From the NCBI RefSeq assembly GCF_001677475.2, contig NZ_CP015229.1: a DNA stretch of 64,000 nucleotides; one strand, written 5' to 3'. Both the position numbers and the translations under genes were made by a program. The DNA is from Escherichia coli (GTDB lineage Bacteria > Pseudomonadota > Gammaproteobacteria > Enterobacterales > Enterobacteriaceae). A model generated the notes under the pieces. That model made no database searches and was not told where the DNA came from. It saw only the letters and a list, made by a program, of their open reading frames with translations. This document shows positions 23,032 through 30,527 of the stretch, one piece after another (position 1 is the stretch's first letter; the number at the start of each line of letters is the position of its first letter).

Positions 23032-23937
23032 TTAGCGGAATTTACGTCGATACTCGCCTGGCGTCATCCCAAAGCGTTGCTTAAATACCGTTGAAAAATG
23101 ACTCTGGTCAGAAAATCCCCAATGAAAGCCGATGCCTGCCAGTTTTTCATCATCTGCGGCATGGCGAATCGCATCTGCACAAAAATCGAGACGACGGTTA
23201 CGAATATATTGCGCGACTACCAAACCTTTATCGGCAAACATTCGGTACAAACTACGTACTGACATACCTGTCTCTCCGGCTATCCACTCCGGGCGTAATA
23301 TCTCTTCGCGAATATTATCGTCTATCAACGTAACCACTTTTTGAAACTGACGTTCACGGCGAGGTTGGACAGATTCCCGCTGATGAAGTACTGGGCGAAG
23401 CAGACACACCATCGCCTGTAGCGCAGCTTCACTTTCTGTTTCAGAAAGTGCCGGATTATTCATGCTCTCCTGTAACAGGCGATGACTGAGTTGCACCATG
23501 GGTAAGTCAGCGTCCAGTCTTTCTGCGCAGACAGGTTTTTGATGGGGAAAATATTGTTCCAGCAGAGTGCGTGGCAAAAGTAATGAAATCTGTTTAGAAG
23601 ACTCCTGCCAGTAAAGCGAACAGGGGCGTGAGGCATCGAGTAACGTAATATCGCCAGCGCCAATCTGCACCTGACGCTCATCCTGCTCCATTATTGCCTG
23701 ACCACTAAGCTGAAAAACGGTGTAAAACCAGGCATCGTCGCTGCCTTTTATTTCCTGCCAGGTGCGGGATAAATTCACCCCGCTGGTTGTCACGGTACTC
23801 AGCTTTAGTCCTTTGGCAAAATGCGTATCCAGTACACCCGTGTAACGCTCAGTCAGCAGGCGTCCGGTAAAATTTCCGCATACCTGATTGATTTGGGAAA
23901 GCCATTGCTGAAACTCATTATCCACTGCGGGGTTCAT
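23032..23937 (-). CDS. feaR: AraC-family transcriptional activator of feaB/tynA
   Basis: 301 aa with C-terminal AraC-type HTH. Confidence 0.9.
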   Translation of the reverse strand: MNPAVDNEFQQWLSQINQVCGNFTGRLLTERYTGVLDTHFAKGLKLSTVTTSGVNLSRTWQEIKGSDDAWFYTVFQLSGQAIMEQDERQVQIGAGDITLLDASRPCSLYWQESSKQISLLLPRTLLEQYFPHQKPVCAERLDADLPMVQLSHRLLQESMNNPALSETESEAALQAMVCLLRPVLHQRESVQPRRERQFQKVVTLIDDNIREEILRPEWIAGETGMSVRSLYRMFADKGLVVAQYIRNRRLDFCADAIRHAADDEKLAGIGFHWGFSDQSHFSTVFKQRFGMTPGEYRRKFR

Positions 23938-24172
23938 GGCACGTTTTCGCTCTGTGAAATGTATTTTTATTGTTGCATTTGTGTTGCAATAAACGAAGCT
24001 AATGAGCCTGACTATAGGAAATAAGTCTTGTCAGGCATAGAGACATAAGCGGTTATTGTCACGATTTGCGGAGCTTGTCACAGCTGACAAAGCGAATGTC
24101 ACAGCGAAAAAAGTGACTTTTCTTGTCGCTGCGTACACTGAAATCACACTGGGTAAATAATAAGGAAAAGTG

Positions 24173-25730: not shown

Positions 25731-28004
25731 TCACTTATCTTTCTTTAGCGCCCCTAGCGTTGGCGTTTCGTCAAAGAAGTTCCATGGTTTAAGCAGAGTA
25801 TGTACCCATTCGGTCGGCATAATCGGCCACTCTTCGGCGCGGGCCACATGTGTGGTGCCGGTGGTCATCCAGACAACGGCGTCGGTGTTGTCCAGCGACT
25901 CGTTATCTTTACTGTATTGTTCAAGACCGGTGTCATGAGTAGAACGGTTCGGATATTTGCCTTCCGGGAAACGCTCGCCAGGATGATAACGCGTTACCCA
26001 GAGCTGCTTGTCCATAAAGCTTAAACGATGATAGATCCACTCGTCCGGCGCGAACTGGGCACCTTTTGCTACCGGGTGAGTACCACCTGCATAAGGAATA
26101 ATTTGATAGGAAACCGGATTGCCCATGCGATTCTCTTTGTTCAGGTTACTCAACAGACGAATCGTGCCCGGATCAAACTTCTGCGCGGCATCCTGTTCAT
26201 TGCCGATGTTGTAGTGATTAACTTGCATGGTACTGGTGCGTGGGCCACCGGCAGTGTTCGGTTTTACCACTGGGTCCATCGCCACCAGGCTGTTATTCTC
26301 GCCATCTACATCCAGATCGAGGCGGAAATTATAAATATGTTGGTGTGTAGTACCCACGATATTGTGATCGATAAGCGTGCCGTAGCGCGTGTCATCTTTC
26401 GCCGTCTCATCGTGCATGGTTTTCGCTTTAACACCTTTCACCGCTTCGATGCCCGTAGCCCCGGCATCAATGCCAATAGTGCCGTTTTCATGGAAGATCC
26501 AGTCAAAAATGTAGTCATAGTTACCCACTGTACTGATCCAGCGCACCACTAACTCCCGGCGTTCGGTACTGACGTTGGGCTGGCCCATTTCCTGATGCTT
26601 ATACTCCGGCCCGGCATAACGTTCAAATACCGCGATAGCGCGAGGGATCTCAATCGGCACGCCAGTGTAGTCGGCGATGGTTTCATTAAGGAGCACTGCG
26701 TTAGACGGGGCATCTTTACCACGAGCAATTGGTGAGGTTAGCGTGCCCATACCGTAGTCACCAGAGTCCAGATACGCTTTAAAGTACCAGCCAATATCAG
26801 GATCACCGTAAGGCACAATCATGCCGCCGAGAGAACCTTCGTACATGACTTTGCGTTTGGTGCCATTGTCGTTATAAGTCACGGTGGAGATCATCGGCCC
26901 GACGCGAGAGTTCATGCTGAGGTGAAAATCCCAGTTACGCCAGTGAATCATATCGCCAGTAATGGTGTAATTTTTACCTTCAGGCTCGATGATTTGCATA
27001 GGTTTAACTGCCGGAGCAACGCGGTCACGGCCATCAAATGGGCGTGCGGTCATTGGCACCGGAACTACCGGACCTTCTTCAATCTTAACGATTTTTTTCT
27101 GTTCTAAGTCAACGACCGCCACCAGGTTTTCGATGGGATGTGCCCAGTAGTTACCATCACCGACATCAAGATAGCTGATGACTTTGAGCAACCGGGCATC
27201 TTGTTTCAGGCCATCTTTACCATCGAAATAACCTACGGTCAGCGGCGTGGTAATCACTTTCTTCGCATCAGTAATACCGCGCTTCTTCACGGCAGCGGCA
27301 AATTCTTCACTGTTGTTAATAATGTTCTGCACACTGGCGAAATCATCCAGCAACACCATACCGTGGGCGTCTTTAATGGGTTGCCAGGAGAGCAGTTTGT
27401 TGTTTTGCAGATCCACCACCGCTTCGATGATATGTTTGCCGTCGAGCATAATGACGTCGGCTTTGCGTGGCTGGTCAACTGGTTTGTTTTCGAGCGCAAA
27501 CGCCCAGACAGCTTCTTTATCTGGCGGTAGCAGGGAGATCTCAGTAAAACGGGTATTGCGTTTGAAGTCCGCGGAAGCTTTAACAATTTCAACGGTCTGT
27601 TTAATTTCGTCCGCAGTTAGCGCATTAAGTGGGTGAGGGCGCTTTTCTACCTGAAAGGTTTGATCCAGCCCGGATTGGAAAACATCGTTAATAAAGGTGT
27701 CAGAAACCCAGGCTTTATTGTCTTTCATCACTACCGGTACTTGCAGTGCCAGAGGCTGACCATTAACAATTGCTGTTTGCGCACCAGGCTTCACTTTCAC
27801 GTACGCGCCATCTTTAATCAGAGTAAAGATCTGGGCGTAGTCGTCCCACTGTACATCGGCACCAAATTCTTTAAGCGTTTTATCCATTGGCACCATATGC
27901 GCTTCACCACCGTGGGCAAATACCGGCGCTTGCCAGGCGAAACTTAAGGCGACTGCCAACGCCAGGGCTGTTTTACGGGCAGAATACAGAGAGGGGCTTC
28001 CCAT
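25731..28004 (-). CDS. tynA: Periplasmic copper/topaquinone amine oxidase
   Basis: 757 aa from MGSPSLYSARK... (SD GAGG upstream); the ORF-track start at 28040 is rejected. Confidence 0.95.
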   Translation of the reverse strand: MGSPSLYSARKTALALAVALSFAWQAPVFAHGGEAHMVPMDKTLKEFGADVQWDDYAQIFTLIKDGAYVKVKPGAQTAIVNGQPLALQVPVVMKDNKAWVSDTFINDVFQSGLDQTFQVEKRPHPLNALTADEIKQTVEIVKASADFKRNTRFTEISLLPPDKEAVWAFALENKPVDQPRKADVIMLDGKHIIEAVVDLQNNKLLSWQPIKDAHGMVLLDDFASVQNIINNSEEFAAAVKKRGITDAKKVITTPLTVGYFDGKDGLKQDARLLKVISYLDVGDGNYWAHPIENLVAVVDLEQKKIVKIEEGPVVPVPMTARPFDGRDRVAPAVKPMQIIEPEGKNYTITGDMIHWRNWDFHLSMNSRVGPMISTVTYNDNGTKRKVMYEGSLGGMIVPYGDPDIGWYFKAYLDSGDYGMGTLTSPIARGKDAPSNAVLLNETIADYTGVPIEIPRAIAVFERYAGPEYKHQEMGQPNVSTERRELVVRWISTVGNYDYIFDWIFHENGTIGIDAGATGIEAVKGVKAKTMHDETAKDDTRYGTLIDHNIVGTTHQHIYNFRLDLDVDGENNSLVAMDPVVKPNTAGGPRTSTMQVNHYNIGNEQDAAQKFDPGTIRLLSNLNKENRMGNPVSYQIIPYAGGTHPVAKGAQFAPDEWIYHRLSFMDKQLWVTRYHPGERFPEGKYPNRSTHDTGLEQYSKDNESLDNTDAVVWMTTGTTHVARAEEWPIMPTEWVHTLLKPWNFFDETPTLGALKKDK

Positions 28005-28251
28005 TATTAACCTCGTCAGATGTTGTGTTCTTGTTAGCAACCGCGCTCTGTGGGCGGTTTAGTCAGGTTCACATTATCAGTACTGATGTAAAGGGGATTG
28101 CCTGCACCTGCCAGGTTGTTTGGCAGTTGTGCCAGCTTTTCATACAGTGGGTGCCTTGAAAATAGATGTACACACCATGCATAATGTGACAACGTCACAG
28201 AATTTAGTGAAATAAAAGGGCAACTATTCGCCGTTGCCCTTCATTCACCGA

Positions 28252-30352: not shown

Positions 30353-30527
30353 AAAAAGCAAGGCGTATTTTAACGAAGTGTTAACTGTGCGATCTGTATA
30401 TCAACCACTAAAAACATTAATGCACTGATAAATAATGAGTTATAAAAATAGGGTGCGAAATCCGTCACAGTTCAAACATACAAAATTTGTGATTTTAGTT
30501 AACCATTGTGTAACTTTCATAAAACAA

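Follow-up and report, generated by a model that had tools for sequence, protein, structure and literature searches.

Tandem FeaR boxes as the probable operator of the feaB promoter in the feaR-feaB spacer of Escherichia coli

The spacer between the divergent genes feaR and feaB of Escherichia coli possesses two direct-repeat boxes of the form TGNCA-N8-AAA, 21 bp apart, which, judged from their sequence and conservation, very probably constitute the FeaR operator of the feaB promoter (positions 24076-24112). The motif is present in a fixed geometry, is conserved among about 22 genera, and recurs at the tynA promoter. The two-box operator of feaB is already known and published, and nothing of substance differs in the present description. 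The FeaR site was reportedly described by Zeng & Spiro in 2013 (J Bacteriol 195:5141) as TGNCA-N8-AAA, with two copies each in the feaB and tynA promoters, and the same study is reported to have shown that FeaR binds and that mutation abolishes activation; the locus, the motif, the number of copies, and the two promoters are the same as those found here. A third repeat, a palindrome, and a GTGAC element, which an earlier note on this DNA had included, go beyond this published two-box site and are unsupported by conservation.

Tandem boxes upstream of feaB and tynA

The window, that is, the whole stretch of 64 kb that was analysed, corresponds to the feaR / feaB / tynA / paaZ region of E. coli (Table 1). 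A 301-bp query spanning the spacer found matches in 3288 complete E. coli genomes, in which the matched stretch bears feaR and feaB annotations. The spacer is identical to that of strain K-12 MG1655, and within it the window coordinate equals the MG1655 coordinate minus 1423346. No regulatory features are annotated in the feaR-feaB spacer in the RefSeq record of MG1655. The regulator encoded next to the spacer scores 505 bits with the NCBIfam FeaR equivalog, for which the cut-off is 199, and carries the domains AraC_binding_2 and HTH_18/HTH_AraC. The annotation match and the NCBIfam score bear out the identity of the flanking genes, which the earlier note had assumed to be feaR and feaB. FeaR is described as an AraC-family activator of tynA and feaB in PMC4640556, and phenylacetaldehyde is cited as its effector in PMC5540944, on the authority of Zeng & Spiro 2013. 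The mechanical open reading frame call for feaB starts at GTG 24170, and the annotated start is the adjacent ATG, which is also present at this position in the aligned orthologous regions.

Table 1. Coordinates of genes, boxes, repeats and candidate promoter elements in the window
Feature	Position	Strand	Sequence or remark
feaR	23032-23937	-	
feaR-feaB spacer	23938-24172		235 bp, between divergent genes
GACTATAGGAAA	24010-24021		strongly conserved; minus strand TATAGT (24016->24011), candidate feaR -10
ATAAGCGGTTATTGT	24045-24059		overlaps copy 1; ATA-N9-TGT in E. coli
TGTCAC copy 1	24057-24062	+	exact word
CRP-like element (putative)	24067-24082		TGCGG-AGCTTG-TCACA; centre 24074.5; overlaps box 1
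TTGTCA-CAGC-TGACAA	24075-24090		perfect 6-4-6 inverted repeat
FeaR box 1 (distal), probable	24076-24091	+	TGTCA-CAGCTGAC-AAA; holds copy 2 and the palindrome core
TGTCAC copy 2	24076-24081	+	exact word, 19 bp from copy 1
FeaR box 2 (proximal), probable	24097-24112	+	TGTCA-CAGCGAAA-AAA; holds copy 3, ends at expected -35
TGTCAC copy 3	24097-24102	+	exact word, 21 bp from copy 2
GTGAC	24113-24117	+	expected -35 region of feaB promoter; unconserved
feaB -10 (predicted)	24134-24139	+	TACACT; TAGACT in most genera
feaB	ATG start 24173	+	
tynA	25731-28004	-	
tynA tandem FeaR boxes	28098-28134	-	TGGCACAACTGCCAAA, 5 nt, TGGCAGGTGCAGGCAA

Both boxes of the feaB promoter are exact matches to TGNCA-N8-AAA, 16 bp each, and start 21 bp apart. 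The motif TGNCA-N8-AAA was also tested independently here. The two-box pattern TGNCA-N8-AAA-N5-TGNCA-N8-MAA found two matches in the 64 kb and none in 100 shuffles, which clearly exceeds chance, and the two matches are located upstream of feaB and of tynA, both in sense orientation. The earlier note had read three TGTCAC repeats in the spacer as the layout of a multimer of AraC-type FeaR upstream of feaB. Copies 2 and 3 do head the two boxes and fit the motif, while copy 1 heads no box.

Conservation was assessed from a scan with a FeaR alignment, restricted to one genome per species, which detected 80 loci, with feaB divergent from feaR in 68 of them. The footprint sample comprised 69 distinct feaB upstream regions from these 68 divergent loci, belonging to about 22 genera, and an ungapped, genus-level set of 22 representatives served as second conservation set. 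Box 1 begins with TGTCACAG (24076-24083), conserved at 96-100% per position in the 69 regions and likewise in the 22 genus representatives. The AAA arm of the same box (24089-24091) is conserved at 87-100%, with A24091 at 100%. In box 2 the four fixed bases of TGNCA (24097-24101) reach 100%, as do those of box 1, the centre base 24099 is T in 86% of the regions and otherwise A or G, matching the predicted 'N', and the AAA arm (24110-24112) is conserved at 99-100%. Both pentamers were found at the 21-bp spacing in all feaB upstream regions (69/69), so that copies 2 and 3 are conserved in other feaR-feaB loci, as the earlier note would have it.

No indels were detected from 24065 to 24139 across the 22 genera, although the sequence of 24113-24133 varies, which is the signature of a fixed geometry from activator to polymerase. 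The conservation of TGTCACAG exceeds what TGNCA requires, and this suggests another constraint on copy 2, possibly an overlapping CRP-like site.

The comparison with the tynA upstream region, which the earlier note had proposed, shows the same two-box pattern. Box 1 of tynA is located at 28134-28119 on the minus strand, and the second box follows exactly 21 bp further on. The second E. coli tynA box ends in CAA, not AAA; the FeaR motif is therefore somewhat degenerate. The same pair at 21 bp was present in 11 out of 14 tynA upstream sequences from other taxa, a sample built from ten further contigs together with Serratia and Hafnia loci. The tynA consensus reads cTGGCAaA.ctgaCAAA..AccTGGCAgg.gCAGgcAAAc, with TAnnnT at 37-38 bp. 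The tynA promoters were also searched for a further FeaR box ahead of box 1, and none is conserved.

Outside the Enterobacteriaceae core the genes are ordered differently. In Hafnia and Serratia feaR is followed by tynA and then by a convergent feaB, and in Pseudomonas feaR is followed by a feaB homologue on the same strand, about 0.8 kb downstream. The Serratia tynA promoters retain tandem TGNCA-N8-AAA boxes despite the differing gene order. Between 28005 and 28251 the tynA upstream region has seven differences to K-12 MG1655, one of which (28127) lies in the N8 of FeaR box 1; despite its identical feaR-feaB spacer, the window thus does not come from K-12. The sole TGTCAC of the tynA upstream region (28191-28186) forms part of a palindrome unrelated to the boxes, TGTGA-CGTTG-TCACA (28184-28198, minus strand), a 5-5-5 arrangement one base short of the CRP spacing. 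This palindrome lies upstream of the tynA FeaR boxes, beside the NsrR-like sequence ATTATGCATGGTGTGTACATCTATT; the tynA upstream regions from other taxa lack it. A sigma-54 site (TGGCAC-N5-TTGCA) at the TGGCAC of tynA box 1 was considered and rejected, with the GC element at the wrong distance.

Copy 1, the palindrome and GTGAC

The repeats that the earlier note described were confirmed as sequence features. TGTCAC occurs on the plus strand at 24057, 24076, and 24097, with spacings of 19 and 21 bp, and the middle copy is embedded in TTGTCA-CAGC-TGACAA, a perfect inverted repeat. The inverted GTGAC, placed at 24114 in that note, is present; its start is at 24113, and the inverted hexamer is matched at five of six bases (GTGACt). 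With 30 matches in the window (32 expected), TGTCAC shows no enrichment, and 1 out of 1000 dinucleotide shuffles gave three copies of the word on one strand within 46 bp. However, the word was picked post hoc, after being seen in the sequence, and triplets of any hexamer within 46 bp number nine in the window and about 2.0 +/- 1.5 per shuffled window. For these reasons the TGTCAC cluster, taken by itself, is real yet only weakly beyond chance. The palindrome is likewise unremarkable, since the window possesses 25 perfect palindromes of the 6-4-6 type (15.5 expected).

The three TGTCAC copies are not equivalent in their context. Copies 2 and 3 have a common right-hand context of 20 nt (TGTCACAGCTGACAAAGCGA and TGTCACAGCGAAAAAAGTGA, 80% identity), 21 bp apart. 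The context common to copies 1 and 2 is left-hand only (GCGGnnnTTGTCAC) and lies 19 bp apart.

A model in which the three phased TGTCAC copies bind a FeaR trimer or a higher multimer, with copy 1 as third box, has in its favour three identical hexamers on one strand within 46 bp, at the shuffle frequency of one in a thousand given above, and the moderate conservation of the bases T-TC of copy 1 (T 82-87%, T 82-86%, C 64%). Nevertheless, this model is very unlikely. Copy 1 is followed by GGA instead of AAA at N8 and stands 19 instead of 21 bp from box 1; its position reads TGNCA in only 9 out of the 69 feaB regions; and its G and A are conserved at 33% and 39-41%, whereas the A is invariant in boxes 1 and 2. 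Furthermore, copy 1 shares the left-hand context of copy 2 without the right-hand context of a FeaR box, and the tynA promoters, which answer to the same activator, lack a third upstream box. The earlier reading of the three repeats as a multimer site is thus not upheld for copy 1. The same note had offered the palindrome as a possible site of a second regulator, and a second, dimeric regulator with its operator at TTGTCA-CAGC-TGACAA is likewise highly improbable. The inverted repeat is perfect, and TGNCA-N4-TGNCA is also present in tynA box 1 of E. coli (TGGCA-caac-TGCCA) and in 7 out of 11 tynA promoters. However, the left arm is the TGNCA of FeaR box 1 and the right arm overlaps its (C)AAA, the outer base T24075 is conserved at 7% and T24085 at 32%, TGNCA occurs at the right-arm offset in 22 of the 69 feaB regions, and palindromes of this kind are as numerous in the window as stated above. 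The recurrence in tynA box 1 points to the FeaR box rather than to a regulator specific for feaB. Since it recurs there, the palindrome is read as a likeness inside one FeaR box, and it looks like a by-product of the make-up of box 1, in which the sub-elements TGNCA and (T)GNCAAA resemble each other.

GTGAC fares no better as part of the operator. It lies at the expected -35 position and is unconserved in the 69 regions (G 75%, T 4%, G 67%, A 14%, C 16%), and neither it nor the palindrome is conserved in other feaR-feaB loci. Copy 1, the palindrome, and GTGAC are probably not separate functional parts of the FeaR operator. That the whole TGTCAC cluster is a functionless chance arrangement would be in line with the lack of enrichment of the word and with the roughly two hexamer triplets per shuffled window. 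Yet copies 2 and 3 and their AAA arms are near-invariant at a fixed spacing in about 22 genera and recur at tynA, and this reading of the whole cluster has next to no probability left: conservation has already refuted it for copies 2 and 3, and only for GTGAC, the palindrome, and copy 1 can a chance origin still be held.

The NAC consensus is ATA-N9-TAT. The NAC-like site that overlaps copy 1 does not match it exactly in E. coli, which has ATA-N9-TGT; an exact ATA-N9-TAT was found at the aligned position in 18 out of 69 regions, from the clade of Enterobacter and Lelliottia.

A CRP-like element and the feaR side of the spacer

Upstream of box 1, the block TTTGCGG (24065-24071) is conserved at 91-100% for 24066-24070 in about 22 genera, as strongly as the FeaR boxes themselves, and it is absent from the tynA promoters. 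Together with copy 2 it yields TGCGG-N6-TCACA, which agrees with 8 out of 10 bases of the CRP core TGTGA-N6-TCACA and is the sole match in the spacer with at most two mismatches. In the left half of this element T24067, G24068, and G24070 are conserved at 97-100% (G24068 100%, G24070 97%). At most two mismatches to the CRP core were found in 65 out of the 69 feaB regions, and the left-half variants of other genera come nearer to the CRP consensus (TGTGT in six, TGCGA in five).

Copy 2 may well be shared with a second regulator, through this CRP-like element rather than through the palindrome. The reading considered here is that copy 2 belongs both to FeaR box 1 and to the CRP-like TGCGG-N6-TCACA, which would serve the feaR promoter, the feaB promoter, or both; it is an addition to the two-box FeaR explanation, not a replacement. 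We regard it as a tentative possibility, short of an even chance. Zeng & Spiro are said to have proposed CRP control of feaR, and to have found feaB, not tynA, restricted to carbon-limited cells, which would suit this overlap. It would also agree with the conservation of TTTGCGG at the level of the FeaR boxes and its absence at tynA, with the 65 regions close to the CRP core and the variants that approach the consensus, and with the location of the centre at about -70.5 from the predicted feaR start and about -71.5 from the predicted feaB start, distances of class I type, though both start sites are predicted only. Several observations weigh against the overlap. Matches to the CRP core with two mismatches are common (21 in the window, 30 expected), C24069 departs from the consensus and is nevertheless conserved, and T24066 is conserved without being needed for the CRP consensus. 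CRP and FeaR would meet in a single major groove (TCACA/TGTCA), which makes joint binding difficult, and on the minus strand (24080->24065) the same block also fits TGACA-N8-AAA, an inverted box resembling that of FeaR. The literature points both ways: PMC3105977 (Shimada 2011) lists feaR as a known CRP target, and genomic SELEX did not recover feaR.

If both proteins recognise the site, the middle TGTCAC would be a node common to two overlapping operators, at which CRP and FeaR compete or alternate at one groove; this is conceivable but rather unlikely. In a variant of the overlap, the conserved TTTG would be the AAA arm of an inverted FeaR box built on the palindromic TGNCA core, which would lead to autoregulation of feaR. 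CRP-like or FeaR-like sites were not found upstream of feaR genes that are not divergent from feaB (Hafnia, Serratia, and Pseudomonas), and this comparison is uninformative.

Elsewhere in the window, the divergent paaZ-paaA spacer harbours TGCGAAATCCGTCACA (30454-30469), which departs from the CRP core at a single base. Regulation of the paa operons by CRP is reported in work cited in PMC4640556.

On the feaR side of the spacer, TATAGT would place the predicted feaR start near 24004 on the minus strand, and no conserved -35 element was found upstream of it. Copy 1 read on the minus strand (GACAAT; GATAAT in Enterobacter) was considered as feaR -10 and rejected: GTGACA is only 14 bp away, leaving no acceptable -35 spacing, and TATAGT is much better conserved and the stronger candidate. 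Within 23957-23988 the sequence ATTGTTGCATTTGTGTTGC is conserved, with GTTGCA present twice, 11 bp apart (23972 and 23983), and AAATGTATTTT at 23957-23967 resembles an NsrR half-site. Just upstream of feaR, TTGCAACA is shared with Hafnia and with one metagenome-assembled genome, in both of which feaR and feaB are not divergent.

Promoter geometry, proposed activation and significance

A TAnnnT is present exactly 37 bp after the first T of box 2 in 68 out of the 69 feaB regions, and the bases T, A, A, C, and T of the predicted feaB -10 are conserved at 94-100%. With a spacer of 17 bp, this -10 would place the -35 hexamer at about 24111-24116, where the sequence is not conserved and where box 2 ends (24112). 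A scan of the feaR-feaB spacer for consensus promoters and terminators gave no match, and a blank promoter scan is what one would anticipate where transcription depends on an activator and a good -35 is lacking. Counted from a predicted feaB start near 24146, box 1 would occupy about -70 to -55 and box 2 about -49 to -34, which is the geometry of AraC I1 and I2 at araBAD.

The binding mode, the transcription start of feaB, and the activation mechanism that we infer from this layout are as follows. The two boxes, 21 bp or two helical turns apart, would lie on the same face of the helix, and box 2 would touch the -35 position of a sigma-70 feaB promoter without a recognisable -35. FeaR belongs to the AraC/XylS family, with a ligand domain at its N-terminus and a double helix-turn-helix (HTH) domain at its C-terminus, and may bind with one monomer per box. 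Within each monomer the two HTH motifs would recognise TGNCA and (C)AAA, which lie in adjacent major grooves at a distance of about one helical turn. Aldehyde-bound FeaR, with the product of TynA as co-activator, may then recruit RNA polymerase in a class II-like manner.

Class II activation by AraC/XylS-family regulators is known from tandem sites such as AraC I1 and I2 at araBAD, and from those of RhaS, RhaR, XylS, and MelR. Similar to these systems, the feaB promoter has direct repeats of about 17 bp at a spacing of 21 bp, the proximal repeat lying at the predicted -35, and the regulator has a two-HTH C-terminal domain. The recognition sequence of FeaR differs from those of the AraC-type systems, and no distal looping operator is evident here. 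The CRP site of AraC-type systems precedes the activator sites; in the feaB promoter the CRP-like element overlaps box 1 instead. MarA, SoxS, Rob, and RamA are monomeric two-HTH proteins that bind asymmetric sites of about 20 bp. Residues 199-299 of FeaR align with the two-HTH DNA-binding domains of these four proteins (PDB 1bl0, 7w5w, 7bef, 1d5y), and, as in MarA-type boxes, the FeaR box has two sub-elements (TGNCA and CAAA) about one helical turn apart. FeaR differs from them in its extra domain for ligand binding and dimerisation (PF14525) and in its use of two boxes.

As a discovery this carries little weight, since the operator re-identified here was already published, and for the best-studied bacterium. 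In practice the result is of use for biosensors for aromatic amines and aldehydes that are based on FeaR and PtynA (PMC11542736). The footprint across genera sharpens the definition of the operator, with every base of TGNCA except N invariant, CAAA at offset 12-15, and a rigid spacing of 21 bp between the boxes and of 37 bp to the -10. The feaB-specific TTTGCGG is a concrete and cheap target for studying how carbon control is wired into the divergent promoter pair. If true, the overlap of CRP and FeaR sites would link the carbon status of the cell to the expression of feaR and feaB, and would account for the restriction of feaB, but not of tynA, to carbon-limited cells.
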